Positions 4,198 through 32,050 are shown, numbered from the stretch's first letter. The stretch: DNA of 34,867 nt from a virus (IMGVR_UViG_2684622580_000006), one strand, 5' to 3'. Translations and numbers: made by a program. Notes: generated by a model from the letters alone, not told the origin.

Positions 4198-4220
4198 AGG
4201 GAGTTGTTGCTCCCTTATTT
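4198..4220. terminator. Bidirectional intrinsic terminator between convergent genes
   Basis: agggag-ttgttg-ctccct hairpin followed by tatttt; lies between the stop at 4186 (+) and the stop at 4215 (-). Confidence 0.5.
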
Positions 4221-4862
4221 TACGCTCGTCCACTTAGATTCTGAGTTCCATTTACCGATTCGAGAAAAAAACGTATCTTGTTCATTTCCTTTATAACTAC
4301 GATGAACACCATCAGAAGCGTGATTTCTTGCCGATTTCTCAAGAACCTCCCAGATTGAGTTCATAACAGCTTCGGTTTCGTTTTTAGATTCATTATCATC
4401 GTATTCGATATTAACTGTTAATTTATCCATAGAACCAGTAAACAGATTAAAACTCTCTGTTAGACTGCCAGTATTCGGATTCAGAAAACAAATATCAATT
4501 TTAACGTCTGCTCTGTTCAAAGCTTTTGTTCGAATCAAGTTAATATATTCTTTTCGGATATTAGCCAGCTTAACGGTCATACCGATGTTGCTAATTTCTT
4601 TTTCTTCGCTGATTGAACTGATATCAGTAAAGTCACCAGCGGCAATATAATTTTTACCTTGATATTGCAAGTCGTAATAAGCATCAGTTAACAACAGTTC
4701 TGCGCCGTTATGCATCTTAATCTGAACAAGATGAAACAACGTGCCAACACTGAACAACTGACCAGTAGTCAGTTCAGTATAAGCAGTGCCGTTAAAATCG
4801 TTATACGCTTCGATGAAGTCGGGGTCTTTTCTCAGTCTGTTAAATTGGTCTTTTACTGACAT
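4215..4862 (-). CDS. Hypothetical protein (second gene of a minus-strand pair)
   Basis: 215 aa ORF; start overlaps the upstream gene stop by 1 nt (translational coupling); no motif I recognise. Confidence 0.6.
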   Translation of the reverse strand: MSVKDQFNRLRKDPDFIEAYNDFNGTAYTELTTGQLFSVGTLFHLVQIKMHNGAELLLTDAYYDLQYQGKNYIAAGDFTDISSISEEKEISNIGMTVKLANIRKEYINLIRTKALNRADVKIDICFLNPNTGSLTESFNLFTGSMDKLTVNIEYDDNESKNETEAVMNSIWEVLEKSARNHASDGVHRSYKGNEQDTFFSRIGKWNSESKWTSVK

Positions 4863-5437
4863 TACACCACCTCTGTTGCAGTGAGTTTAATATTTGAAAT
4901 TGATGCTAAGTCTAACGGGATAGTATCGTTCGTTAGGATGAATCGTCCTTTTGTTCCTCTGTAACTGACAGTTTCACCAGCTTGAACGTTCTGCAACAGA
5001 TTCGGAAATAGTTTCATCTCTCCACCTGCTTTGACATCCTCCGTCACGGTGTACAGCTTGGAGTGATTCTGAAACTGAACAAGTGCTCCCGCTTCTAAAG
5101 TATCTGCAAAGCTGTTCAGAGTGACCTTACGCGCTCCTTTGTTAGCTGTAACAGATGCTTGGATAAGTCCCTGAGCCGAGCCTTTATAGTCAGTCAAGTA
5201 GCTTAACGGAAAGTCAAACGGTTGACCTTGTTGATGCATCGCGATAAAGCGTTGAACGTGTCTTGTGTCCTGCGACATATAATTCACAGTGAAATTCAAT
5301 TCGAAATATTGAACGCCTGTATAACGTTTCTGAAAACGTCCTGATACTGCTCTGTTAGAGAAAAACGGAGCATTTGATTTAAGCTGAACATCGGTCAGCC
5401 TAACGTCTGTGTCTAATAGATTCATAAGTCCTCTCAT
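4862..5437 (-). CDS. Hypothetical protein (first gene of a minus-strand pair; start may be the internal Met at 5425)
   Basis: 191 aa ORF; AGAGGA precedes the ATG of MNLLDTD at 5425, whereas the ATG at 5437 has no SD. Confidence 0.6.
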   Translation of the reverse strand: MRGLMNLLDTDVRLTDVQLKSNAPFFSNRAVSGRFQKRYTGVQYFELNFTVNYMSQDTRHVQRFIAMHQQGQPFDFPLSYLTDYKGSAQGLIQASVTANKGARKVTLNSFADTLEAGALVQFQNHSKLYTVTEDVKAGGEMKLFPNLLQNVQAGETVSYRGTKGRFILTNDTIPLDLASISNIKLTATEVV

Positions 5438-5470
5438 AAATAAGATTTTAACTATATTTATGAGGCCAAT

Positions 5471-5956
5471 ATGGAACTAAACGCAATGCTTCGTTATGAC
5501 GAAGGCGAAAAACTCACGATGTATAAAGACACAGAAGGATATTTCACAATCGGTGTCGGACACTTGATTACAAAAAATCCATCAAGAGACTACGCTTTGA
5601 AAGAACTTGATAAAGCTGTTGGTCATCCTTGTTATGGATATATCACAGCGAAAAAATCTGATCAGTTACTGAATATTGATGTTAACTCAACTCTGCGTCA
5701 GCTTAGTAAAACAGAACTGCATCCAGCTTATATCAGAATCGATACAGCCAGGCGTTCAGCGTTAATCAATATGTGTTTTCAACTCGGCGTTTCTGGCGTA
5801 TGTCAGTTCAAGAAATTCTTGGGATACATGGCTGTTGGAGATTATCAAAATGCGGCTGATGAAGCTTTAGACTCAAGATGGGCACGTCAGACTCCTAATA
5901 GAGCAAAACGTGTAACTGATGTTATTAGATATGGCGATTTCAGAAGTTATAATTAA
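5471..5956 (+). CDS. T4-type lysozyme (endolysin, glycoside hydrolase family 24)
   Basis: 161 aa; N-terminus MLRYDEGEKLTMYKDTEGYFTIGVGH aligns to T4 lysozyme [26 protein letters not shown] with catalytic E11, D20, T26 conserved; C-terminal RWARQTPNRAKRV also matches. Confidence 0.9.
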   Translation: MELNAMLRYDEGEKLTMYKDTEGYFTIGVGHLITKNPSRDYALKELDKAVGHPCYGYITAKKSDQLLNIDVNSTLRQLSKTELHPAYIRIDTARRSALINMCFQLGVSGVCQFKKFLGYMAVGDYQNAADEALDSRWARQTPNRAKRVTDVIRYGDFRSYN

Positions 5957-6000
5957 AAATTTATATTATCTAATTTGAACAGCATCAAGTTGATGAATCG

Positions 6001-6038
6001 GACTAAGCAGATATGTAATTAACACCATCAGCTTAGTC
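6001..6038. promoter_or_regulatory. Operator-like inverted repeat GACTAAGC-N22-GCTTAGTC just upstream of the -10 element
   Basis: Perfect 8-bp inverted repeat at 6001-6008 and 6031-6038; a third half-site GACTAAGCA at 6248-6256 in the leader. Confidence 0.35.
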
Positions 6039-6309: not shown

Positions 6310-6597
6310 ATGTTAAAAGTTACTGGTCTTGATAAGCTTCAGAAAGAACTCAAGGATGCAAAGCGTATACTGAGTGAGCTGGATGGCGAGCTAGGAGTCG
6401 TAAAGTTTAACCCTAACGACCCTGCTAGCATCGAGTCGGCAATTCAAACAGTTAATCACATGATTGATGAACGCATTGGCGGATGTTCAACCAACTCCAT
6501 AGTCGGCTCGCTTGCGCAGCAGATGAAGGAAACATACAGAGAAGGCATTCTTAAAAAAGCTGCCGAAGCCAGATTGACTTCAAGTGAGGATGAGTAA
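6310..6597 (+). CDS. Small protein (95 aa), first gene of a two-gene cargo operon
   Basis: ATG at 6310 preceded by GAAGGTG; the track ORF starts at TTG 6298; stop overlaps the next ATG by 1 nt (TAATG). Confidence 0.6.
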   Translation: MLKVTGLDKLQKELKDAKRILSELDGELGVVKFNPNDPASIESAIQTVNHMIDERIGGCSTNSIVGSLAQQMKETYREGILKKAAEARLTSSEDE

Positions 6598-7493
6598 TGG
6601 CTCAAGATATTTTTTCTGAAATGAACAATGCTGTTCTGGATTTACAGGCTTCACAATACCAGACCTTTGAACGTCCACTCAAAAAGCTTGCTCAGCTTCT
6701 AAAACATTCCGATCTTGAATCATACAATGCAGACCTGACTGAAGGACTCAATCTTACAGAGTTTCTCGCAGAAAGTGAGAAGACTGGAGGAAGTATGGCT
6801 GGGAGTGCCCAGCTTGTCTGGCCAGATGATGCAAGAAAAACACTAGGCCTTACATTACTTTTGATTTTTAAGTTAGCAGAAGATCCTAATTATGCAATCA
6901 ACTTTGGACATCATTTTTTCTATTCCGGAAGTAAAGTTATAGCAGGCATTCATTCGATTACAGGACAACTTATCATTCCTTTCGTTAGAGATTACAAAAA
7001 TTATGTTCAGTCTAAGGGAAGCACAGAAACTATGTTGAAGCCGCAGTTTTCGAACAAAGTTTTCATTGTTCATGGTCATGATGATGGCGCCCGTGAAACA
7101 GTCGCAAGGTTTCTTGAACGTATAGGTTTAGAAGCAATCATATTACATGAGCAAGCTAATCAGGGACGAACTGTCATTGAGAAAGTTATAGCAAATAGTG
7201 ATGTTGGATTTGCTGTTGTATTGCTAACACCAGATGATGAAGGTTGTGCTAAAGGAGGAATACCAGAACCAAGGGCAAGGCAGAATGTAATGCTAGAATT
7301 AGGATATTTTATCGGGCGTTTAGGCAGAGAGAAAGTATGTGCACTAAAACGCGGCTCACTAGATATTCCAAGTGATTTTGCTGGGGTTGTTTGGGAAAAT
7401 ATGGATAGCAGTGGAGGCTGGAAGCAAGCACTCGCACGAGAACTTGAAGCTGCTGGTCACAATATTGATTGGAATAAAGCAATGCGGAGTTGA
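6597..7493 (+). CDS. Protein with a C-terminal TIR-like nucleotide-binding domain (COG4271 / PF10137-like); candidate defence effector
   Basis: C-terminal segment KVFIVHGHDDGARETVARFLERIGLEAIILHEQANQGRTVIEKVIANSDVGFAVVLLTPDDEG matches the consensus I remember for the 'predicted nucleotide-binding protein containing TIR-like domain' family; the N-terminal ~150 aa are unrecognised. Confidence 0.55.
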   Translation: MAQDIFSEMNNAVLDLQASQYQTFERPLKKLAQLLKHSDLESYNADLTEGLNLTEFLAESEKTGGSMAGSAQLVWPDDARKTLGLTLLLIFKLAEDPNYAINFGHHFFYSGSKVIAGIHSITGQLIIPFVRDYKNYVQSKGSTETMLKPQFSNKVFIVHGHDDGARETVARFLERIGLEAIILHEQANQGRTVIEKVIANSDVGFAVVLLTPDDEGCAKGGIPEPRARQNVMLELGYFIGRLGREKVCALKRGSLDIPSDFAGVVWENMDSSGGWKQALARELEAAGHNIDWNKAMRS

Positions 7494-7832
7494 TTTTATA
7501 TAGCTCCATTTTTAGCGATACTGGCGTTTCATCGACAATTAAAAATTTGGCTGCTGATTAGCCTAAAACGCAGCCAAATATAAATCATTAATGATATTGC
7601 TTAAATAAGTTTTAACGACTCATCTTCAGCGCCCCCCTCTAACAAAAAATAATAGTTACTCTGGGACTTCTGAAACACCGAGATGTTTCGAACGCTCAGC
7701 TTTTTTCTCGCGAGTGAAAATCCAAATCGTGTTCAGTTCATCATCGATAGACAGGAACTATCCCGAATTCCTCCCGCTGTAGAGATAAATACAGAGATAA
7801 ACCCTTATTCCCTCTACACTTGGAGATATTTA

Positions 7833-8372
7833 ATGGCTCGTAAAACTTATGTAAGCATGACTGAAATGGCTAAACGTTATGGTTATAGCCTCAACGCTAT
7901 CAAGAGCTGGCGTGCAGAAGGACTGCCCTACTCTGATAATCCTTCTGGTATTCCAGAAGACGAAGGCACTTTATGGATTGTTCAGAACAAAATTAACCCA
8001 ATGCGAAATATGTCCATCAAGGACGAATTCGAACGAGAAAAACTCCGTGAACAGGTGGCTAAAGCTGACTTGGCAACTTATGCAGCACAAGAAAAATCTG
8101 GTGAATTAATACCAGTGGATTATGTTCAAGCTGAGTTGAACCGTTTTTGTTCGCAACTGAAAGACAAAATCAGATTAATTCCGAAACAACACGCTTTGGA
8201 GATTCTTGAATCTGCCGTTTCAGTTGAAGAACTTCGTGATTGTCTGAAAGAGAAAATCGACCAGACGTTACGTGAGGTTGACAGTTTGTTTGAAGAACCT
8301 CAGTTACAGGACAATTCCTCAGACGAGTACAAAGAAAAGACAGAGAATGATACTGAGATTGACCTTGATTAA
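7833..8372 (+). CDS. Terminase small subunit (lambda Nu1-like)
   Basis: From the ATG at 7833 (GGAG 7 nt upstream) the product is 179 aa; N-terminal wHTH MTEMAKRYGYSLNAIKSWRAEGLPY resembles Nu1 LADIFGASIRTIQNWQEQGMPV; EREKLREQV resembles Nu1 ENEKLRREV; the track ORF is extended to 7683. Confidence 0.65.
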   Translation: MARKTYVSMTEMAKRYGYSLNAIKSWRAEGLPYSDNPSGIPEDEGTLWIVQNKINPMRNMSIKDEFEREKLREQVAKADLATYAAQEKSGELIPVDYVQAELNRFCSQLKDKIRLIPKQHALEILESAVSVEELRDCLKEKIDQTLREVDSLFEEPQLQDNSSDEYKEKTENDTEIDLD

Positions 8373-8387
8373 GGGAGCATCGCTCCC
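8373..8387. terminator. Stem-loop gggagc-atc-gctccc right after the terS stop
   Basis: 6-bp GC-rich stem immediately after the stop at 8370-8372; weak U-tract; same stem sequence as the hairpins at 4198, 13232 and 13505. Confidence 0.35.
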
Positions 8388-8600
8388 TTATCGCACAGCA
8401 CTTTTGAAGATCTGTTTCAGACGGTTGATAGAGACACGATCTGGTGAAAGATGTCGGATTTGTATACCACAATATTTCATTACATCATGATTACAAAGGA
8501 TTTGATGGCAGTTGTAATGCGATTCAACGCGATGCATCACCGTGTCCGTTCTTTTCAAAGAGCATTTGCAGTTTGCACACTGATGGTCAAATTTTGTCAT
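8388..8600 (-). CDS. Small Cys/His-rich protein (about 70 aa), possible zinc-binding
   Basis: Minus-strand ORF; ATG at 8600 preceded by GAGGAAG; TATAAATA on the minus strand at 8622-8629; product has QCANCKC and HYNCHQILCNH clusters. Confidence 0.4.
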   Translation of the reverse strand: MTKFDHQCANCKCSLKRTDTVMHRVESHYNCHQILCNHDVMKYCGIQIRHLSPDRVSINRLKQIFKSAVR

Positions 8601-8768
8601 AGATACTTCCTCTAAAACTGTATTTATACACTGTGCACAGTGATGATATATTACTATGCATGAACTTGATTTCATGCTTTATAAGTTTTATTGAGTCTCA
8701 CAAAATGATAGATTATCCTATGTGAATACAAACAGTTATAACCGACAGATTAATGGGTTGAGGACGTA

Positions 8769-9245
8769 ATGGACAATGAACTGAAAAAACTTATACACGC
8801 ATTCAGAAATGCTCTCGTTATGGCTGCGGATACACATTCATTTGGGTGTTTCAGTATGCCAAGATGGTCAGAGTTAAACAGTTTTCCACATGGTTGCTGT
8901 GACTTAGCAAGTAATTTTCTGGCTCAATATCTCACAGACTATGGATATGAGCCTGAAATAATTTGGTTTGAATGCTGCGAAGAACTAAACAAATATATCA
9001 AATCACACGTAGTTGTTAGGATTAACGATTACTATGTTGATTTAACACGAAATCAATTTGATGATCATAATGGAAGAGTATTGATTGAAGACAAATTCGG
9101 TTCCATTCCACGATTAATTAAACAAATAAAATCAATGAACTCAAATAATGTTGAGGATAGAAATATCAATATTAATACATTTAATTCAAGTGGGTATGAA
9201 CTCTACAGCTATATCAAAAAAATTGCGAATAATTTGATTAACTGA
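8769..9245 (+). CDS. Putative Cys-His-Asp fold protein (papain/transglutaminase-like), paralog 1
   Basis: 158 aa; Cys in FPHGCCDLASNFLAQYL, then SHVVVRINDYYVDLT; shares the H-x2-V-x-[VI]-x2-Y-x2-DL[ST] pattern with the next ORF; GAGGA SD; very AT-rich. Confidence 0.5.
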   Translation: MDNELKKLIHAFRNALVMAADTHSFGCFSMPRWSELNSFPHGCCDLASNFLAQYLTDYGYEPEIIWFECCEELNKYIKSHVVVRINDYYVDLTRNQFDDHNGRVLIEDKFGSIPRLIKQIKSMNSNNVEDRNININTFNSSGYELYSYIKKIANNLIN

Positions 9246-9341
9246 ATAAAATTATTTTAAAAAGGAAAAGAACCAGCATTGGAAATTTATTAAACATGTT
9301 GGTTTTATAATCGATAAAACAATCTGATTGGTGAGAATAAA

Positions 9342-9848
9342 ATGAATAATAATGAAATGAAGCAACAAATAAATGAATTGTCTTCTTATGTTCTGGACAA
9401 GACAATCAAAAAAGAGAAGGCATGTCTCTACATGAGTGCATATCTTTGCGCACTTATCAATGACAACATGAGAATAACCGCAAGATTGATTTCTGGGTCA
9501 CTTGTTATAAAAAACACTAAGATTTTCTCACATGAGCCTATACTGCCGATACTTACTTCGGGGAGCAATTATACCGGAGAATGGGATGGTCATGCTTGGG
9601 TTGAGGTCGCTGGATATATATGCGATTTATCAATCTTTTGTACAATTTTTTCAGAAAGTACATCAACTGAATTGCAGGATGTTTTCATGCAAACATTTGA
9701 TAGATACTATGAATTCTTAATCGCACCAAGAGAAAAACTAGAAGCAGCAGATATTTGCTATAAAGAATGCGAAGAATTAGGTAATGAACAAATAGATATT
9801 CTGATTCACTCAGGAATCAAATCAGGTATCTTAGTCAATCCAGAATGA
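9342..9848 (+). CDS. Putative transglutaminase-like cysteine peptidase fold protein, paralog 2
   Basis: 168 aa; KACLYMSAYLCAL (Cys), then GHAWVEVAGYICDLS, which matches the transglutaminase-like HAWxEV...D signature; stop overlaps the next start (ATGA). Confidence 0.5.
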   Translation: MNNNEMKQQINELSSYVLDKTIKKEKACLYMSAYLCALINDNMRITARLISGSLVIKNTKIFSHEPILPILTSGSNYTGEWDGHAWVEVAGYICDLSIFCTIFSESTSTELQDVFMQTFDRYYEFLIAPREKLEAADICYKECEELGNEQIDILIHSGIKSGILVNPE

Positions 9849-10567
9849 TTACAGAGGATAAAATGGAAGCAAACACTTTTATCGACCGTTTTTTTCATAG
9901 TTCTTATGAATTGACAGATTTTCGTCACGTTGGCGAACGAGACATTAACTCATTGTATACATTTCTGAATTTACTCCATTCTCTAAATGATCGTTTCAGC
10001 AAGGAATTTGGGATAGCTCAACTGGCCAAAAGGCCAGAGTTTAAATTATTACGTTTGATACGTAATTATTTTCAACATGTAGGGGATGTGGACGAATTCC
10101 GTCTATTTCAGACTCGTGATGCCATTTTGACTTCACATATGGAAATGATCATCATCCCAACAGCTTTAGTAGCTCGTGCCATCGAAAGTTTTCGAAACCA
10201 ACCACATAATAAGAAAGATCCAGTACGGGCTGAAAAAGAACTTTCATCCATTGCATCAGCTATCAGCGATTTTGAATATCTTTGTGATAATACGGATCTT
10301 TTTAGAGAAAACCCTCCTTTTCATGATACTGATAATACATATTTCTTAGGTTTTGACCTTTATAAATCCGTGTATAATATTACCAATATCGTAGCAGATA
10401 TATGCAGGAAAAGGGATGAATTTGCAATAAAAAAATGCGTTCAAGAGCTTGAAAAAGAATACACCGAAATGAATAACATACCAAAAGAAAATATATTATT
10501 ACTTGCGGGAAGTCCACCGCCACTACTAACAACCCAAGGTTTTGTGTTTCCTAAAAGGGATAGATAA
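9845..10567 (+). CDS. HEPN-motif protein (Abi-like putative RNase)
   Basis: 240 aa; contains LIRNYFQH, i.e. the R-[N]-x3-H (Rx4-6H) HEPN motif in its usual hydrophobic context; translationally coupled to the preceding gene. Confidence 0.45.
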   Translation: MITEDKMEANTFIDRFFHSSYELTDFRHVGERDINSLYTFLNLLHSLNDRFSKEFGIAQLAKRPEFKLLRLIRNYFQHVGDVDEFRLFQTRDAILTSHMEMIIIPTALVARAIESFRNQPHNKKDPVRAEKELSSIASAISDFEYLCDNTDLFRENPPFHDTDNTYFLGFDLYKSVYNITNIVADICRKRDEFAIKKCVQELEKEYTEMNNIPKENILLLAGSPPPLLTTQGFVFPKRDR

Positions 10568-10608
10568 ATTAAAGTAATTATAGTTCGTATAGATTTTCTT
10601 TTACCAAA

Positions 10609-10650
10609 TATTGTTGATTCGCTATTATACCTTAATAGCAATCAACAATT
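10609..10650. terminator. Imperfect 17-bp palindrome between convergent stops (bidirectional terminator or protein site)
   Basis: ttgttgatt(c)gctatta - tacct - taatagcaatcaacaa; lies exactly between the stops at 10567 (+) and 10656 (-). Confidence 0.4.
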
Positions 10651-10655
10651 GATTT

Positions 10656-11264
10656 TCATATTGCTTTGGTCGGCTTTGAAATTTCAATTTTCACAATTAA
10701 CAGTTCTTCGTCAAAAGATAACTTATTCCCCTTCATTACTTTTCTCATAACGCCGTTCTCATTTTCGAGAGCAGCGTTTTTTAGTTTTAAGGCTTCAATC
10801 TCCTTTCTCAATTCTTCCAATTCGTTGGTGATAACATCAACTTTCTGTTCAGTAGGAAATTCAATTTCTTCTTTAATCTCTACAAAACTCCCAACATATT
10901 GCTGAACAAAGTTATCGGTGTCTTTTTTGTGAATCATAGTCAAGTCTGAACCTAAAGCTTTCCAGTTACGACCTTCACAGCAAACGATCACAGCTTTTGT
11001 CATATCACTTGAATAAGCAACGATAGCAGGCTTGTCGTTCAGTTCTGACATACCGATTTGGAATTTACGCATATCTTTTACAGTCAACGCGTTTTCAACT
11101 TTGCTTAACATCTTTGCTCTGATGTTACGGTGAATCTCTGTAAAGCTACCGATAAAACTTTTCAGCTTGTTTCTGTTATTGGTCATTTCGTTAGTCTTAA
11201 CGATTTTTTTATTCAAGCTAACGTTAGTAGTCCCGTTCAAGTTTTCAAAGATTGAGAAATTCAT
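10656..11264 (-). CDS. Hypothetical protein with C-terminal coiled coil (possible regulator / antirepressor-like)
   Basis: 202 aa; C-terminal ELEELRKEIEALKLKNAALENE heptads; start overlaps the stop of the upstream small HTH ORF. Confidence 0.55.
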   Translation of the reverse strand: MNFSIFENLNGTTNVSLNKKIVKTNEMTNNRNKLKSFIGSFTEIHRNIRAKMLSKVENALTVKDMRKFQIGMSELNDKPAIVAYSSDMTKAVIVCCEGRNWKALGSDLTMIHKKDTDNFVQQYVGSFVEIKEEIEFPTEQKVDVITNELEELRKEIEALKLKNAALENENGVMRKVMKGNKLSFDEELLIVKIEISKPTKAI

Positions 11265-11428
11265 TATTTGATGTCCTTTTTAACAGGTTGAGTTCTGATA
11301 TTTCGTTTCTTGCAAGCGTTATATAGCGTTGCTTTGTTCATCTGTTTAGATTCTGCAATCTGCTGAAATGTCTCACCAGCATCTAGACGTGATTCGATTT
11401 CAAATTTGTTTGGAATAAACTTTGCCAT
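11264..11428 (-). CDS. Small HTH DNA-binding protein (54 aa), below the ORF-track size cutoff
   Basis: Hand translation MAKFIPNKFEIESRLDAGETFQQIAESKQMNKATLYNACKKRNIRTQPVKKDIK; resolvase/Hin-type HTH; stop overlaps the ATG of the 202-aa gene (TAATG). Confidence 0.5.
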   Translation of the reverse strand: MAKFIPNKFEIESRLDAGETFQQIAESKQMNKATLYNACKKRNIRTQPVKKDIK

Positions 11429-11451
11429 TTGGTTGCCTTTTTATGATGTTG

Positions 11452-11477
11452 AAAAAAGAGCGCTCTTGCGAGCGCTT
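11452..11477 (-). terminator. Intrinsic terminator oriented for minus-strand transcription
   Basis: Stem agcgctc / gagcgct with loop ttgc; plus-strand A-run at 11452-11457 gives a U-tract on the minus-strand RNA; sits in the leader of the HTH operon. Confidence 0.45.
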
Positions 11478-11491
11478 CAAACTTTAAGGAA
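11476..11491 (+). repeat. 16-bp direct repeat ttcaaactttaaggaa, copy 1
   Basis: Identical to 12404-12419; contains an AAGGA ribosome-binding site followed by a 7-codon micro-ORF. Confidence 0.6.
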
Positions 11492-12403
11492 TTTTTAAAT
11501 GAACTTATCGTTGTTCACATAGCTATTTTATATCGGCTATTCGATAGCGTAAACAAAGAGAGAAAACAACGAGGAGAAGAAACTCTCTATTGTTCTTCAT
11601 AGGGTATTTAGTGCCCTCACCGAAAGTGTAAGCAAAATTTTTAAAATAATTTGAAAGCAATCGGAGCAAACGTATCGATGCACTGATAAAACGCATCGAT
11701 AGCGCATCGATGCTTCTCGGCAAAGCGCATGGACCTTGAAGAAAATCGCCCTATAAGAACAATTGGATAAAGATGATATGGAAGGATATAGAAGCAGTAA
11801 ACACTACAAAACCAGATCTGAAAAACAGATTTCGCGAAGCGCGGGCGAAGCCCTAATTAATAACATTAGCGCGTAAGCGCGACAGATAGAAGTTAATCAA
11901 CATCGCTATGATCATAGATGTTGAACTTGATGATCAGTAATTATTACTAGATACGATTATTAGCGCTTCGCGCGTTCGCTACGCTCACAATATTGTTTTC
12001 TGATCATAATCAATAACTTCTAACTGCATTATAACCAGATCTGAAAACCTGATAAACTTAACTATCGTTAATTAAATCAGATAGCGTTAGTGAGTTCTCC
12101 ATCGCTTCGCTCAGTCGAACGGGCAAGCGCCGTCTTTGATAGAGATCTGGTCTTTATCGTTTTAGCTGACCTTATCGTCCCTCCTCGCTTCTCCCTGCTC
12201 TACTGACCATCTTGATACACCTTGTTCATCTATACCAGCCAAATTGAACCTGATGCACCCTGCTTTGATACCGACCTTGATTGTTGTCGCTTCGCCTGCG
12301 GCTCGCTTACCACCGTTATTGAATCGGACCAATAGAGATTCCTAGTTTACTAAATACAAGCGTGATTCAGAGAAACATCTGAAAGTCAACACTTCTATTC
12401 AAA
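11492..12403. other. About 0.9 kb non-coding, repeat-rich region (candidate ncRNA, iteron origin, or insertion remnant)
   Basis: No credible ORF; three GCATCGAT palindromes at 11676-11716; two aaccagatctgaaaa repeats (about 11810 and 12035); several CGCTTCGC-like motifs. Confidence 0.4.
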
Positions 12404-12419
12404 TTCAAACTTTAAGGAA
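12404..12419 (+). repeat. 16-bp direct repeat ttcaaactttaaggaa, copy 2 (RBS of the homing endonuclease gene)
   Basis: Identical to 11476-11491; immediately precedes the ATG at 12427. Confidence 0.6.
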
Positions 12420-12426
12420 ACTCAAA

Positions 12427-13041
12427 ATGTACAAAAGAACTATCAACAACGTAACTTACAAAACCCGTTCTGAACTGGATACTGAGCCAACCGGATTCAG
12501 CGTTTATAAAACCGTTTTCAGTATCAACAATGAATCATTCGTTTATTACGGCAAACAAGCTTTCAACGGTCAGCCTGATATGTCGTATATCGGTTCTGGT
12601 CGCAGAGTTCAGGAAAAACTCGCTGAAATGACCGAGTCAGATATCGTTTATAAAATCGTTCTACAGAATTTTGAATCAGAACAAGAAGCGTATGACTTCG
12701 AATCTGAATGCATTCAATCAGCACGCAAATCGAAGGTTAATATTTTAAATATATCTAAAGGAAACTCCGGTGGTAAGGTCTTTGACAAAATGACAGAAGA
12801 ACAAATTAAACAACGTAACGCGAAAATCTCTATGAGCATGATGGGTCACGAAGTCTCTGATGAAACTCGTCGTAAAATCTCAGAAGCGAAATCTGGTCAG
12901 ACTCGCTCTGATAATACGAAACAAAAAATCGGTGATGCTCTGCACGGTCGCAAAACTGGACCTAAATCAGAAGAAACCAAACGCAGAATGTCAGAAGCAC
13001 ATAAAGCACGTCACGCTAACAAGGAGACAGCGAATGTCTAA
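12427..13041 (+). CDS. GIY-YIG homing endonuclease with NUMOD3-like repeats (Seg / I-TevI-like)
   Basis: 204 aa; N-terminal GFSVYK...FVYYGKQ...YIGSGRR (GIY-YIG spacing) and C-terminal repeats HEVSDETRRKISEAKSG / SEETKRRMSEAHK typical of NUMOD3. Confidence 0.75.
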   Translation: MYKRTINNVTYKTRSELDTEPTGFSVYKTVFSINNESFVYYGKQAFNGQPDMSYIGSGRRVQEKLAEMTESDIVYKIVLQNFESEQEAYDFESECIQSARKSKVNILNISKGNSGGKVFDKMTEEQIKQRNAKISMSMMGHEVSDETRRKISEAKSGQTRSDNTKQKIGDALHGRKTGPKSEETKRRMSEAHKARHANKETANV

Positions 13042-13285
13042 AACTCAGCAGTTTCTAAGACCTGTTATCGTTGCGCTTGTTGTCGTAGGAGGTTGCGCTA
13101 TTGAATCGTGTAGCAGCACAGTATCAAAAGAATCGATTATAAAGCGTGACATCATATGCGCAAATCAGGAGTACAATCCTAAAACTGCAAAGCATGACAT
13201 TGAAATGTGCCGAAAGGGATTCAACAAAAAAGGGAGCATCAGCTCCCTTTTATCATTTAAATCCATGAACCAGCAGCTGCTCTAA
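13034..13285 (+). CDS. Small lipoprotein (83 aa), candidate superinfection-exclusion or spanin-like protein
   Basis: ATG at 13034 preceded by AAGGAG; signal peptide MSKTQQFLRPVIVALVVVGG followed by the lipobox Cys (VVGGC); the track ORF 12860-13285 is an artefactual upstream extension. Confidence 0.6.
   Translation: MSKTQQFLRPVIVALVVVGGCAIESCSSTVSKESIIKRDIICANQEYNPKTAKHDIEMCRKGFNKKGSISSLLSFKSMNQQLL
13226..13253. terminator. Bidirectional terminator hairpin gggagc-atca-gctccc embedded in the 3' end of the lipoprotein ORF
   Basis: 6-bp stem flanked by an A-run (13226-13231) and a T-run (13248-13251); for the minus strand it sits right after the stop of the 59-aa ORF. Confidence 0.45.
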
Positions 13286-13432
13286 TCTCTTCTCTAGCAA
13301 CTTGTTCGCTGAATCTTCGCTGAAGATGATTGATTGAACGTCACAGTCGGTTTTCAGTCTTAATGCTGCATCATCAACCGACATACGTTCGTTTTGTACA
13401 TCACCATTTTTGTAAATAACTTTAACAATCAT
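13253..13432 (-). CDS. Small protein (59 aa), convergent with and overlapping the 3' end of the lipoprotein gene
   Basis: Hand translation MIVKVIYKNGDVQNERMSVDDAALRLKTDCDVQSIIFSEDSANKLLEKRLEQLLVHGFK; AAGGAG 6 nt upstream of the ATG; terminator right after the stop. Confidence 0.4.
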   Translation of the reverse strand: MIVKVIYKNGDVQNERMSVDDAALRLKTDCDVQSIIFSEDSANKLLEKRLEQLLVHGFK

Positions 13433-13500
13433 GCTTGCTCCTTAGCATTGTTTGAAACATGATGATTTCACATTTCAACTTATATCTCAATCTACATACA

Positions 13501-13528
13501 GAAAATGGGAGCATTAGCTCCCATTTTT
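13501..13528. terminator. Intrinsic terminator downstream of the minus-strand HTH gene
   Basis: atgggagc-atta-gctcccat hairpin flanked by aaaa and ttttt. Confidence 0.5.
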
Positions 13529-13929
13529 CATTGTGAACCTCCATTTGTTTTATTGGTACAGCGTAAAAACTGATCGCGTATATACGCTTTTGATTTACCT
13601 GTCATTCGCTTACCGAATTCAATGAAATCTCCTTTCGTCTGACGATAAACAATCAAACTGATTTCAGAAGGTTTTTTGTGAGCACTATTTGATGCTAGCT
13701 GTTTTTCAATGTTCGGGATTTCTGATTCTTTAACTTCACCAGCTTCAATTTCAGAAGCAATAACTTCCTCTTCAACTGGCTTCACAGTGTATTTTTCAAT
13801 ATTTGCTTTAACGCGACGAACAACAGAGCGGGAAACTTCAAATTGTTCAGCAATCTTACGTTCTGATAAATCTGTTCCTGCGTTAATCATTGCAGCTATT
13901 TTATTTTCGATAGTCGGTTCAGTTTTCAA
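13528..13929 (-). CDS. HTH DNA-binding protein (133 aa), divergent from the large terminase gene
   Basis: N-terminal HTH AGTDLSERKIAEQFEVSRSVVRRV; TTG start with GGAG 8 nt upstream. Confidence 0.55.
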   Translation of the reverse strand: MKTEPTIENKIAAMINAGTDLSERKIAEQFEVSRSVVRRVKANIEKYTVKPVEEEVIASEIEAGEVKESEIPNIEKQLASNSAHKKPSEISLIVYRQTKGDFIEFGKRMTGKSKAYIRDQFLRCTNKTNGGSQ

Positions 13930-14039
13930 TTCGATGTTCTCCGTGTTGAGATGGATTGAACTTTAACAATCCAGGTCCGAGGTGCAAGCGTCCTGAAAAT
14001 TATTTGTTGGATTCTTCATAAATACACTCAGAGGTGACT

Positions 14040-15923
14040 ATGAAAAGTATCAACAAATTAAAGAAAATCATTAAAGCATCAAAAATTTTTATCATGCCTC
14101 CTGCTGATTACACGCCGTCAGAATGGGTCGAACAGAACTTAATCTTCCCTGATGGACCATATGCGGATCAGCCAATGCGACTTTTTGAGTTCCAGCGCGG
14201 AATGATTGACGCTATCAAAGGCAATAAGAAGAAAATCGTTCTTATGACTTCTGCACAGATCGGCAAAACGACGATTCTGAACGGTGTTCTGTTCTATAAA
14301 TCAGCTATAGATCCAGGCAACGCGGGTGTTTTACAGTCTACAGCGAAAGAAACGACACAATGGTTATCAGGTAAAATTAAACCGATGATTGATGCATCGG
14401 AAGAAATGCAGAAAATCGTTACTGATAAAAACGACAGAAATGCAGTTAATAACACCAGTCAGATTCAGCTACGAAATGGTGGTTTCTGGTATTTCATGAG
14501 TTTGAACTCTCCTTCTCACTTGCGTGGTAAAACTCTGCCATTGCTTCTGCTTGATGAAGTTGATGCTGTCGATACTGATACAGAAGAAGGCAACCCAATA
14601 ATGATTGCCGAACAGCGTGCAACAACTTTCGGTTCAGACGCTCGAATCTTTATCAGTTCGACGCCTACTGGCAAATACGGTGCCATCAATACTCAATACG
14701 AAGCATCCGATAGACGTAAATTCCATATCGATTGTCCTCATTGTGGTCGTTCTCATGAACTCGTTTGGGAAAACATTAAATTCGATTGGATTAAACATGA
14801 TGGTAAATCAGTACCAGATCCAGAAACTGCGCGTCTTGAATGTCCTTCTTGTAATGAAGCAATCTCAGAAGCACAACGAGCAAGAGCATTAGCAAACGGT
14901 AATTGGATTGTGACTAATCCAGAAGCTGATACAGCAGGATTCCATGTAAGTCGTTTATACAGTCCTATGAGTTCAATAAAATCTGTCGTTCAAGATTTCA
15001 AAAATGCTTATCAAACATTCAGTTTGTCAACGTTCTATAACACCGTATTAGGTCTGCCTTTTGATGATCTGAACGAGGATGTGGAAATCAGTAAATTAAA
15101 CGAACTGAAAACTGATATCAGTATCAGAAATATTCCAGAAGATTGTCTTTTCTTAACTGCGGGTGTTGACCAACAGCAAGACCGTTTAGAAGTAACCTTG
15201 ATGGGTCACAACGAACGAACCGTTTATATTCTTGCACATCGTAGCTTTATGACAATGAACGCTGAGGTTATCGATTCCCCTGCTTATAAAGAACTTCTTG
15301 CATACGTTAAAGCACCGTTCAGAACAGCTTTGGGAAGAAAGGTTCCTTTAGCGTGGGTGAACGTCGATAGCTCAAACGGTCGAGCAACTAAAACAATCTA
15401 TCGTTTCTGCTCTCAGTGGACAAACCTGAAAGCAATTAAAGGTGCCAGCTCAGTTGATGCCCCTTATGTTCCAACGAAAATCACGAAAACCGGTGGTTAT
15501 GAACTTTATATGATTGGTGTAAACCAAGGAAAAAACTTAGTTCGTGAACTGCTAAACAGAAGCGTGAAATCTGGAAATACACCAGTCAGAGTCGAAATCT
15601 CTGATGATGTTCCAGATGATTACTGCGAACAGCTTATGTCCGAAGAATTAAAACGCTCTGGCAATACTGTTAGATGGGTTATTAAACAAGGCGGTGTTCG
15701 TAACGAAGGTCTTGACTGCTTTAACTACGGTTATTGTGCGCGTCTGCAAGTTCTAGAGAAAATCAAATTTCACGAGTGGAGGAAACTCGCTGCTAAATCT
15801 GATATTGAAATGCCAGAAGAACAAAACGAAACAAATTCTCCTGTTATTCAAACTCCTGAACCACGTCGAAACATTATCAAACGAAACAGACCAGTTAATA
15901 AGCCTCGTGGTTTCGGATTATAA
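14040..15923 (+). CDS. Terminase large subunit (lambda gpA family)
   Basis: Walker A-like SAQIGKTT; FHIDCPHCGRSHELVW...ECPSCNEAI aligns to the lambda gpA zinc-ribbon region FHVACPHCGEEQYL; NEGLDCFNYGYCARL aligns to gpA NEALDCFVYALAAL; ATG 14040 with a GAGGTG SD (track start is GTG 14034). Confidence 0.9.
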   Translation: MKSINKLKKIIKASKIFIMPPADYTPSEWVEQNLIFPDGPYADQPMRLFEFQRGMIDAIKGNKKKIVLMTSAQIGKTTILNGVLFYKSAIDPGNAGVLQSTAKETTQWLSGKIKPMIDASEEMQKIVTDKNDRNAVNNTSQIQLRNGGFWYFMSLNSPSHLRGKTLPLLLLDEVDAVDTDTEEGNPIMIAEQRATTFGSDARIFISSTPTGKYGAINTQYEASDRRKFHIDCPHCGRSHELVWENIKFDWIKHDGKSVPDPETARLECPSCNEAISEAQRARALANGNWIVTNPEADTAGFHVSRLYSPMSSIKSVVQDFKNAYQTFSLSTFYNTVLGLPFDDLNEDVEISKLNELKTDISIRNIPEDCLFLTAGVDQQQDRLEVTLMGHNERTVYILAHRSFMTMNAEVIDSPAYKELLAYVKAPFRTALGRKVPLAWVNVDSSNGRATKTIYRFCSQWTNLKAIKGASSVDAPYVPTKITKTGGYELYMIGVNQGKNLVRELLNRSVKSGNTPVRVEISDDVPDDYCEQLMSEELKRSGNTVRWVIKQGGVRNEGLDCFNYGYCARLQVLEKIKFHEWRKLAAKSDIEMPEEQNETNSPVIQTPEPRRNIIKRNRPVNKPRGFGL

Positions 15924-29488: not shown

Positions 29489-29773
29489 ATGGTCGATATG
29501 GCACTGATCATTTCCATCTTGGGTGCTCTAGGAGGTTTCTTGGCTTGGGTTTATGCCGAAATTAAATCAAACAATGAAAAACGACTTGACCTTGAGAAAC
29601 GTTTCTCAGACATCGAAAAAAGCATTGCCGTTAATGACGCAAAAGATGCTTCGCTTATAAGCGATATAACCAGACAACAGGATGAATTTCGAGAGGTCAA
29701 ATCTGATTTGAAGAATTTAGAAGGAAGGACATCAAAGCTAGACATCGACCTAGCAGTTCTAAGAGGAAAATGA
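29489..29773 (+). CDS. Membrane-anchored coiled-coil protein (holin / i-spanin-like topology)
   Basis: 94 aa; N-terminal transmembrane helix MALIISILGALGGFLAWVYA followed by a charged coiled coil; AAGGAG SD. Confidence 0.5.
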   Translation: MVDMALIISILGALGGFLAWVYAEIKSNNEKRLDLEKRFSDIEKSIAVNDAKDASLISDITRQQDEFREVKSDLKNLEGRTSKLDIDLAVLRGK

Positions 29774-30246
29774 AAAGAAAAGAGATTCCGATTTATAAGC
29801 AAGAACTCTTTCAAAAGCAAAAAGGTCTTTGTGCGTTAACAGGCATAAAGATTCACGAAGTTAATAAAGCCCATCTTGACCATGACCATATTTTAACAGG
29901 CTCTAACGCAGGCAGATGCAGAGGATTATTAATCGCTCAAGCAAACGTCCTCGAGGGTAGAATAAAACATCAGTTTAAACGTTCAGGTCTCGATGGGAAA
30001 ATTGACTACATCGAGTTTTTAAAGAATCTTGTTCAGTATCTTGAAAAAGACTACTCAGACAATCCTACGCATCCACAACTTATTCCCGATTTAAAGAAAG
30101 CGTTCTCTCGAAAAAATCTTTCTGAGATGAAAGCTATTACAGGTTCAAACCTTAAAACGAAAAAGGAGCTTGAAAAAGTCTACTCAAACCAAATAAAGGT
30201 GAAATATGAAAATGAAATATCTCCAAGCAATGGCAAAACACGCTAA
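29770..30246 (+). CDS. Endonuclease VII (T4 gp49-like Holliday junction resolvase) homolog
   Basis: 158 aa; HLDHDHILTGSNAGRCRGLL...EGRIKHQFKRSGLDGKIDYIEFLKNLVQYLEKDYSDNPTHP aligns closely to T4 Endo VII HLDHDHELNGPKAGKVRGLL...EGQMKHKFNRSGLKGQGVDYLEWLENLLTYLKSDY. Confidence 0.85.
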   Translation: MKRKEIPIYKQELFQKQKGLCALTGIKIHEVNKAHLDHDHILTGSNAGRCRGLLIAQANVLEGRIKHQFKRSGLDGKIDYIEFLKNLVQYLEKDYSDNPTHPQLIPDLKKAFSRKNLSEMKAITGSNLKTKKELEKVYSNQIKVKYENEISPSNGKTR

Positions 30247-31687: not shown

Positions 31688-32050
31688 ATGTTACGTCGCG
31701 GATTATCTAACGAAGAAATTCAACAGATGTCCGTAATGATGTATTATGAATTATGGTTTTTCGATTCGTTTATTGAACCACAAAGTCCTGTCTATAACGA
31801 TTTCTATCAAGCTCGATTGATTCACACTATCGAAGCAAATAACCCGAATCTGACCAAAGAGTACAGGAAAAAGTTGAACATGAAAGACCATCAGCTTATT
31901 AAAGATTCTGTGTTTAAGTCTCAAGAAGAAATCGAAAAAGAGAAAGAACAACAGGAGATTAAACGTAAGAAAGCTATTGAATCGATGTTCGACCCAGCTC
32001 TGTTAGATAAAGTTAAACTGAGAAAAACAAAAAAGGTGAATAATGGCTAA
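31688..32050 (+). CDS. Tail assembly chaperone C-terminal extension (gpT-like), probably expressed as a G-T fusion
   Basis: 120 aa ORF in the -1 frame relative to the chaperone ORF; no ribosome-binding site upstream of its ATG; overlaps the tape measure start by 8 nt. Confidence 0.5.
   Translation: MLRRGLSNEEIQQMSVMMYYELWFFDSFIEPQSPVYNDFYQARLIHTIEANNPNLTKEYRKKLNMKDHQLIKDSVFKSQEEIEKEKEQQEIKRKKAIESMFDPALLDKVKLRKTKKVNNG

Follow-up and report, generated by a model that had tools for sequence, protein, structure and literature searches.

P2-like prophages and P4-like satellites carry defence hotspots, which have a fixed position and conserved flanks (Rousset et al., 10.1101/2021.01.21.427644; PMC9122126). 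Eleven of the 16 systems tested from the P4 hotspot were active (10.1101/2021.01.21.427644). These hotspots are located beside cos, between gpA(rep) and Q, and contain alternative short cassettes of 2-3 kb that include retrons, Septu and many unknown systems. Prophage hotspots of this kind are a productive source of new anti-phage systems. The locus described here, called slot 1, resembles them in its position next to the packaging machinery, in its alternative short cassettes and in that these cassettes are thought to protect the lysogen. It is part of the interval 8373-14039 in a 34,867-nucleotide stretch of viral DNA, IMGVR_UViG_2684622580_000006 (the window, meaning that whole stretch), which carries an E. 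coli prophage. Unlike P2 and P4, this prophage has a gpA/Nu1 terminase, a serine integrase and a siphovirus-like tail. Its hotspot is positioned between the genes for the small and large terminase subunits, terS and terL, and is known from sequence alone. The prophage defence hotspot is a known kind of locus; what is new is that it lies within the packaging gene pair of a lambda-type terminase and contains an uncatalogued cassette.

Adjacency of terS and terL is the rule in the literature, with rare exceptions (PMC9611059, PMC10269572). The two genes are 58 kb apart in the Pseudomonas phage E217 (PMC9611059), and 15 open reading frames (ORFs) lie between them in the Burkholderia phage CSP3, an arrangement that was termed 'rather unusual' (PMC10269572). 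Both cases agree with the present one in that the linkage is usual, but not obligatory. They are, however, single genomes for which no reason was stated, whereas here the separation has been mapped to one node and the gap consists of a backbone and exchangeable slots. The Nu1-gpA pair of lambda is similar to the pair in the window: the large subunit is a gpA with both Pfam domains, and the small subunit has a putative Nu1-like winged helix-turn-helix (HTH) at its N-terminus and an acidic C-terminal tail. Unlike those of lambda, the genes described here are 5.7 kb apart, apparently belong to separate units and have genes of the opposite strand between them.

The explanation that is probably correct combines a terS-terL split as old as the clade, a control backbone, swappable slots, and a defence hotspot in the first of these. 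A single event, basal to a clade of enterobacterial prophages, would have parted the Nu1-type terS from the gpA-type terL through a module whose present size is 4.4-8.6 kb. The backbone of this module, comprised of a leftward HTH/coiled-coil operon, about 1 kb of non-coding DNA and a terL-proximal regulator or nuclease gene, would serve as a control region. Two positions in the module, slots 1 and 2, would tolerate insertions, because no operon is disrupted there, and the cassettes of slot 1 would be swapped by homologous recombination in the flanking conserved genes. The cassette found in the window, genes A, B and C, or at least C, would be expressed from the lysogen and defend it when other phages infect, the probable mechanism being abortive infection in which C is an RNase effector. 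The coordinates of all features are given in Table 1.

Separation of terS and terL

The product of terS in the window has no Pfam match at threshold when searched alone. The gene is assigned to the small terminase because it matches PHROG 57, because its homologues adjoin or overlap terL in 53 sister-clade loci, and because a sequence search with the profile of its family finds RppC (1.8e-4), lambda Nu1 (1J9I, E 0.094) and other TerS N-terminal domains. Pfam Phage_Nu1 is matched by four of 10 members of the family, the best at 6e-7. TerL matches PHROG 15 (1.4e-144), and its two gpA Pfam domains are found far above threshold. The start of terL in the databases is the ATG at 14040, as opposed to a 629-residue version with a GTG start. 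The preliminary description of a Nu1-like and a gpA-like gene, 5,667 bp apart with genes on both strands of the interval, is confirmed.

Loci for comparison were collected with a TerL alignment query, 80 from species-representative genomes and 80 from IMG/VR, and were complemented by complete E. coli genomes and public assemblies. TerS was located in each locus by tblastn using eight TerS queries, and 95 loci were informative. The node of separation was read from the series of TerL identities to the window protein. All 42 informative loci with a TerL at least 49% identical to that of the window have a gap of 4,364-8,602 bp from terS to terL, whereas in all 53 loci with a TerL of at most 46% identity terS abuts or overlaps terL, with offsets of -79 to +47 bp relative to the start of the latter. 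About ten further loci with TerL identities of at least 49% contain only 1.9-6.2 kb of upstream sequence each, and no adjacent terS was found in them. Because the dichotomy between 42 gapped and 53 abutting loci is strict, the split is best read as a shared derived trait of one clade and not as a recent event in the window phage. The clade includes prophages of Escherichia, Enterobacter, Citrobacter, Kluyvera, Atlantibacter and Buttiauxella, as well as Salmonella-type prophages. It would represent a natural case in which lambda-type terminase genes were uncoupled once and stayed uncoupled clade-wide.

Taken literally, the original proposal would make the whole 5.7 kb one accessory insertion, that is, cargo that landed recently between adjacent terminase genes. 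Comparison with relatives gives this proposal two answers. The adjacency expected of lambda-type phages is indeed found in the sister clade, where the genes abut or overlap, but in the lineage of the window the split itself is the conserved order, which partly tells against the proposal. The mixed orientation of the genes, the slightly lower G+C content and the variation of some parts between relatives are what a recent insertion might leave. However, the gap, the backbone genes and the motif-bearing non-coding region are present in 42 of 42 clade members from many genera, so that roughly one half of the 5.7 kb is shared by the whole clade. A recent insertion of the entire interval is thereby largely refuted and must be considered highly improbable.

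In the sister clade, the 10 kb around terL contained no homologues of the backbone genes. The possibility that these genes were displaced from a position upstream of terS in that clade was rejected on the same ground.

The acidic C-terminal tail of TerS, past about residue 128, differs among the relatives. Its type tracks the type of the TerL N-terminus, whatever cargo is present in slot 1. Proteins of the same type are 94% identical in the TerS tail and 90-93% in the TerL N-terminus, compared to 28-40% and 60-78%, respectively, otherwise. The tail and N-terminus of the window type occur together with A-B-C or Septu, and those of the other type with a retron or Septu. Furthermore, E. coli and Enterobacter share 93% identity over the block from terS to terL (7642-15779) but only about 70% in its flanks, and the block therefore appears to travel as a unit. 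The split opens the question of TerS:TerL stoichiometry and specificity without translational coupling, for which the matched tail and N-terminus types are a starting point.

The phage database contained no DNA match to the interval and no tblastn match to TerS. The closest TerL in that database, 52% identical, is encoded by PQ671644 (Escherichia phage DCP80), the upstream region of which did not align. This entry (PQ671644.1, locus L001) is a 141 kb record classed as a T4-like Gaprivervirus. Its first 7800 positions start with 1.3 kb of non-coding DNA that contains the TCGCTTCGCT motif twice, followed by the gpA-type TerL and then by the same connector, portal and capsid genes as in the window prophage. 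A TerS homologue was not detected in the record, which may be chimeric or may start at a physical genome end.

The backbone as a probable control region

The window was compared by blastn with the E. coli prophages of MS 115-1 (L003), PSS-15 (L005) and a draft genome (L096), and with those of Kluyvera (L098) and Enterobacter (L094, L099 and L102). The comparisons divide the interval 8373-14039 into conserved and replaceable parts, about half of it being conserved backbone. Throughout the split clade the plan is similar: a leftward pair of genes encoding a coiled-coil protein and a small HTH protein is followed by 1-1.3 kb of non-coding DNA, rightward genes and a terL-proximal gene.

The minus-strand HTH operon noticed in the preliminary description is thus part of the backbone. 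Homologues of its coiled-coil protein are 54-97% identical in all relatives of the subclade, and coiled-coil proteins are found at the matching position throughout the split clade. The HTH protein is 92-98% identical in L003, L005, L096 and L098, although identity of the adjacent genes drops to about 55% there, but it is only 32-36% identical in Enterobacter L094, L099 and L102. Its C-terminal part has a weak match to PHROG 125 (DNA invertase). A small HTH ORF occupies the matching position in L006, L007 and the distant subclade.

The GntR-like regulator at the other end of the interval is 54-84% identical in relatives, and its Pfam match (3.6e-6) sits exactly at the gathering threshold. The 110 bp between its gene and terL contain a 7 bp inverted repeat, TGGATTG-N8-CAATCCA. 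In other subclades the terL-proximal gene encodes endonuclease VII (Atlantibacter and Buttiauxella) or an HNH_3 protein (L110-112), and a Rha-family regulator is among the gap genes of several subclades.

The only regulator-like (HTH) genes of the 34-35 kb element, which fills the space between ybiT and ldtB, are those of the gap backbone, and neither a replication module nor a CI/Cro repressor module is recognisable in it. The backbone is probably the phage's own control region, because no other regulator-like genes are present in the element. TerS and TerL would then be expressed as separate units, because this region lies between their genes: a hairpin stands at the end of terS, terL has its own ribosome-binding site, GAGGTG, as read from the sequence, and the GntR-like regulator is divergent from terL. 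The sequence past the terS stop codon, hairpin included, is retained up to 8417 in L094. The hairpin was not called by the terminator scan, and may be a weak terminator ending the terS unit.

The same gene content could mean that the interval is the phage's own early or regulatory region with nothing accessory in it, its variation being ordinary mosaicism of phage genes. The element's only HTH regulators in the backbone would suit this interpretation, and so would the Rha-type regulators and packaging-associated nucleases in the gaps of other subclades. Yet Septu and a type I-C retron, which are not life-cycle genes, occupy slot 1 of syntenic prophages, the homing endonuclease of slot 2 is present or absent among relatives, and slot 1 has the lowest G+C content. 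An interval free of cargo is therefore improbable, and a control backbone interrupted by exchangeable slots is preferred.

Slot 1, a hotspot for defence genes

Alignment of the island boundaries, which had been proposed as a way of finding insertion junctions, located those of slot 1. Homology to relatives breaks off on the left at 8182-8221, within the 3' region of terS (L003, L096 and L098), or at 8417, past its stop codon. On the right it resumes at 10649-10704, at the 3' end of the coiled-coil gene. Five comparisons underlie the boundaries on both sides. The pattern of breakpoints fits an exchange of cassettes by homologous recombination in the flanking genes. The island had been described as AT-rich, a feature that is marked in slot 1 only: its G+C content is 33.6%, the lowest, compared to a modest 36.5% for the whole interval and 38.8% for the prophage.

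At least six arrangements of slot 1 have been found. Septu is present in E. coli L096 and in Enterobacter hormaechei L094 and L095 (PtuA 2.2e-155 and PtuB 3.8e-94 in PADLOC). A type I-C reverse transcriptase-Toprim (RT-Toprim) retron of the Ec67 type is present in L003, L004 and L107 (6.8e-216 in PADLOC). The cassette A-B-C is shared by the window and Enterobacter hormaechei L099-L102, L105 and L106, with 94-98% amino acid identity. The commonest E. coli variant (L005 and L183-186) has only a 106-residue gene and a 69-residue zinc-ribbon gene. In the Kluyvera prophage L098 terS is followed directly by an elongated coiled-coil/zinc-ribbon gene, the slot being without additional genes, and L110-112 contain other single genes. 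The varying cargo is seen in related prophages at the same ybiT site. The variable proteins of other subclades mostly have no PADLOC or Pfam match.

Septu (PtuAB) and the retron occupy the slot in sister prophages and not in the window itself, and it is their presence there that makes the slot a defence locus. The fixed position, the alternative contents and the recognised anti-phage systems together indicate that slot 1 is a prophage defence hotspot. The cargo hotspot that had been envisaged for the whole island is thus reduced to about 3.2 kb of the 5.7 kb, the remainder being conserved backbone. Its contents across Escherichia, Enterobacter, Citrobacter and Kluyvera already include Septu, a retron and one or more cassettes that are not catalogued. 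It can be mined using terS as the anchor on one side and the coiled-coil and HTH genes on the other.

The only slot 1 gene of L110, on the minus strand at 5280-6008, encodes a 242-residue protein with an LRNIMVH (R-x4-H) motif. The protein has no Pfam or PADLOC match; it may be another cargo of the HEPN type.

The A-B-C cassette

The overall fold of protein A resembles solved members of the transglutaminase-like/papain-fold group, and its matches include SseI, Cif and SpvD. As in the deamidases and proteases of that fold, a Cys-His-Asp triad is present: C44 and H80 are invariant in 30 homologues and D91 is nearly so. A nevertheless falls below the curated family threshold, and its assignment to this group is a prediction. 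Protein C shares with HEPN proteins of the abortive-infection and toxin kinds a conserved RN-x3-H motif, and its helical core matches HEPN toxins weakly. Its RNYxHH residues (R68, N69, Y70 and H73) are invariant in 24 homologues and agree with the R-x4-6-H catalytic motif of the HEPN superfamily. An extra β-rich part is present, the matches are below curated family thresholds, and Foldseek gave no significant match. Of the Cys-His-Asp/HEPN cluster that had been reported, the fold and triad of A and the motif of C stand, whereas a HEPN identity of C is only possible.

Only two clusters homologous to protein B were found, and B is almost confined to this prophage lineage. Its Pfam matches, DUF2026 (0.013) and Transglut_core (0.023), are sub-threshold. 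Comparison of its profile with that of A by hhalign gave a 19-column His-Asp motif at 27% probability, and BLASTP gave nothing, so that B was not accepted as a paralogue of A. It possibly shares the transglutaminase fold of A.

The ratios of synonymous to non-synonymous differences from the Enterobacter copies are 11:3 for A, 9:10 for B and 15:9 for C. A and C are under purifying selection. An unannotated, Cys-rich minus-strand ORF at 8388-8675 has five synonymous and 14 non-synonymous differences, as would non-coding DNA, and was rejected as a gene.

Homologues of C without A or B are found near PLD/Mrr-type genes in Serratia, near FRG and ABC-ATPase genes in a Pantoea lambdoid prophage, and near toxin-antitoxin genes in Alloalcanivorax. 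Solitary homologues of A are known as well, next to the integrase gene in a different type of prophage. In an unrelated viral contig (L195, 2592-4423) a distant homologue of A is located two genes past a 207-residue protein with an RNQLTH (R-x4-H) motif, which hints at an association of transglutaminase-like and HEPN-like genes elsewhere.

The position of A-B-C and its domain content suggest that the cassette defends against phage, a possibility with somewhat less than an even chance of being right. PADLOC detects no homology of A, B or C to Septu or the retron. The three genes might instead be independent morons, an addiction module of the toxin-antitoxin type, or genes for phage counter-defence or host takeover. 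Such roles are conceivable for genes of which two have homologues occurring singly elsewhere and the third, B, is lineage-restricted and weakly constrained, and which have no PADLOC match; transglutaminase-fold deamidases and proteases are, moreover, common effectors. However, A-B-C moves between E. coli and Enterobacter as a cassette, an alternative ATG of C at 9845 overlaps the stop codon of B, the cassette is found exactly where relatives carry Septu or the retron, and the other contexts of C are similar to defence islands. A non-defence role is rather unlikely, although it deserves to be kept in mind.

Several points weigh against the explanation given at the outset, in which a control backbone is combined with a hotspot for defence cassettes. 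What speaks for a control region is gene content only. The commonest E. coli variant of slot 1 contains only two small genes, and the distant subclade has little cargo; the hotspot therefore seems to be active mainly in one subclade. A search of A, B and C against the PADLOC-DB v2 models returned no family at E up to 0.1, and no Pfam or NCBIfam model identifies any of the three. An obligate three-gene system is unsupported, since homologues of C and A occur alone; A, B and C travel together here but need not be one machine. Finally, six of the seven complete E. coli copies of the prophage family carry insertion sequences (IS).

The IS elements, which interrupt terL, capsid, tail or TIR genes, might also indicate that the element is a decaying, non-functional prophage, in which terS is a relic and the gap is neutral debris left after the loss of packaging. 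The absence of a recognisable replication module is consistent with decay. Nevertheless, neither terS and terL nor any backbone ORF is disrupted in the window, and the same holds across genera; the terS-terL block is far better conserved between E. coli and Enterobacter than its flanks. In addition, the TerS tail and TerL N-terminus are matched, A and C are under purifying selection, and blocks of the non-coding region are conserved. Decay to neutral debris is very unlikely, and the functional module with its hotspot remains the preferred explanation.

The non-coding region

The region at 11429-12426 has no ORF that is conserved across the relatives, and none is annotated in RefSeq. Blocks of it are retained in seven relatives. 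All four copies of the motif CGCTTCGC/GCGAAGCG in the window are found in the gap, at 11834, 11964, 12103 and 12288. Only 0.69 copies are expected in the whole window, and the four are confined to about 460 bp (11834-12295). Across the split-clade loci there are 29 copies in 97 kb of gap sequence compared to five in 230 kb outside. Wherever a split-clade locus was examined, distant loci included, a cluster occupies the corresponding gap, and the start of DCP80 has one as well; minus copies are usually on the left and plus copies on the right.

The GCGAAGCG array is a candidate for operators, an origin or a packaging site. About 190 bp ahead of terS (7642-7832), with an inverted repeat GAAACA-N6-TGTTTC, are retained in all members of the subclade despite unrelated DNA further to the left. 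They may be a terS promoter or leader, or a cos region like that of lambda, so that this segment and the GCGAAGCG array are the two candidates for cos. If the array is the packaging site, it extends the pattern of hotspots next to cos in P2 and P4 to lambda-type terminases. That A-B-C is an uncatalogued anti-phage system, that the gap is a minable defence hotspot and that the GCGAAGCG region is a possible packaging site can, taken jointly, be put forward only tentatively. The motif-rich 1 kb of non-coding DNA is directly testable.

A promoter-like site and an intrinsic terminator face leftwards in this region. The TATAAT of the former is retained in seven of eight aligned relatives. The latter precedes the start codon of the HTH gene by about 25 nucleotides and shares its strand. 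In three relatives one pair of its stem is changed on both sides, from G-C to A-U, and its GCAA loop is replaced by UUCG. The two signals would plausibly give a leader or non-coding RNA of about 570 nucleotides ahead of the HTH operon. A structured RNA beyond this leader and its terminator was dropped from consideration. An Rfam search of 7400-14200 gave nothing credible, and RNAalifold on the minus strand of the region gave a covariation term of about zero, the compensatory pair in the terminator being the only one. The long GC-rich inverted repeats of the region are invariant, and hence uninformative either way on RNA structure. The several terminators that had been noted in the island do not stand out, because eight terminator-like sites found, compared to 3.7 +/- 2.3 expected, are not clearly above chance.

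A 29-nucleotide direct repeat (83% identity) is located at 11476-11504 and 12404-12432. The first copy adjoins the conserved terminator, and relatives without the endonuclease of slot 2 have it too; the second covers the ribosome-binding site and start codon of the endonuclease gene. The repeat may be a trace of the insertion of the endonuclease cassette. In L096 a tandem CTTATAT 7-mer repeat has expanded at about 8005-8110, inside the conserved non-coding region.

Slot 2

Slot 2 holds a homing-endonuclease gene and a predicted lipoprotein gene, which are absent from L003, L096 and L107 and are present at 58-93% identity in L005, L094, L098, L099 and L102. The lipoprotein ORF is conserved in relatives. 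The endonuclease had been described as a GIY-YIG enzyme. Its NUMOD3, PHROG 314 and PADLOC matches support a homing endonuclease, but the GIY-YIG domain PF01541 is not matched even at E up to 5, and there is no sequence match in the Protein Data Bank. A VY-x9-YYG ... R ... E ... N pattern is nevertheless visible by eye.

Table 1. Features of the terS-terL interval and its borders in the window
Feature	Position	Strand	Basis or remark
terS, Nu1-type small terminase, 179 aa	7833-8372	+	PHROG 57 'terminase small subunit' 4.1e-20
Hairpin GGGAGC-ATC-GCTCCC	8373-8387	+	directly 3' of terS stop codon, read from sequence
Variable slot 1 (A-B-C)	~8418-10655		between convergent 3' ends of terS and coiled-coil gene
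Gene A, 158 aa, predicted transglutaminase/papain fold	8769-9245	+	Cys44-His80-Asp91 triad
Gene B, 168 aa, possibly transglutaminase-like	9342-9848	+	sub-threshold matches
Gene C, 235 aa from RefSeq start, HEPN candidate	9860-10567	+	conserved RxxRNYxHH motif
Coiled-coil protein, 202 aa, second gene of leftward operon	10656-11264	-	backbone
Resolvase-type HTH protein, 54 aa, first gene of leftward operon	11264-11428	-	backbone
Non-coding region, ~1 kb	11429-12426		conserved portion 11429 to ~12283
Intrinsic-terminator hairpin and T6 run	11452-11476 (stem 11459-11476)	-	terminator scan
Promoter-like TTATCA-16-TATAAT, leftward	12028-12055	-	10/12 consensus positions
Variable slot 2	~12284-13218		homing-endonuclease and lipoprotein genes
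Homing-endonuclease gene	12427-13041	+	NUMOD3 1.6e-9, PHROG 314 4.8e-18, PADLOC homing-endonuclease model 7e-8
Predicted lipoprotein gene, 83 aa, overlaps endonuclease gene	13034-13285	+	lipobox VVGGC by eye
Small ORF, 59 aa, RefSeq-annotated	13253-13432	-	64-97% identical in L003, L005, L096, L102
GntR-like winged-helix regulator, 133 aa, divergent from terL	13528-13929	-	Pfam GntR 3.6e-6
terL, gpA-type large terminase, 627 aa	14040-15923	+	GpA_ATPase (PF05876) 1.4e-61, GpA_nuclease (PF20454) 4.9e-47

The prophage and its other genes

The first 1.75 kb of the window is host DNA with a G+C content of 52-56% and ends in ybiT. The prophage extends from 1785 on, and its first gene encodes a large serine recombinase, which would have inserted the element beside ybiT. 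The length of the element, 34-35 kb, is that found in complete E. coli genomes. Apart from the terS-terL gap it consists of the integrase, lysozyme, a TIR protein, and head and tail genes.

The E. coli relatives considered for IS insertions were L002, L003, L004, L005 and L086. The terL gene is disrupted by IS3 in MS 115-1, and in 2021CK-01361 ISEc68 is present and the 5' part of terL has been lost. Other IS targets among the E. coli copies are the genes for the protease-capsid, hub and TIR proteins. Many of these copies are probably defective yet retained.

Just upstream of terS, at 6310-7493, the window contains a YuaX-like gene of 95 residues and a gene for a 298-residue TIR protein of the CAP12/Pycsar type. 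In PADLOC the latter protein is assigned to the candidate system PDC-S35 (9.6e-71). E. coli relatives have an identical copy, which in PSS-15 is split by IS2, whereas the Enterobacter relatives lack it. Its gene is probably a second defence locus flanking terS.

The tail genes are distributed over both ends of the element. At the extreme right is the gene for the tape measure protein (32043-34442). The distal-tail (Dit) and hub genes, in contrast, are minus-strand genes near the left end (4215-5437), and the integrase separates them from the rest. A segment with the hub, distal-tail and lysozyme genes (4224-5929) is inverted in the Enterobacter hormaechei relatives with respect to the window, at about 70% identity, and may be an invertible or rearranged segment beside the serine recombinase. 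An endonuclease VII gene is found in the tail region of the window, at 29770-30246 (PHROG 423, 5.7e-36); in the Atlantibacter and Buttiauxella relatives it is located directly upstream of terL instead (L006, 9351-9806; L007, 9302-9760).

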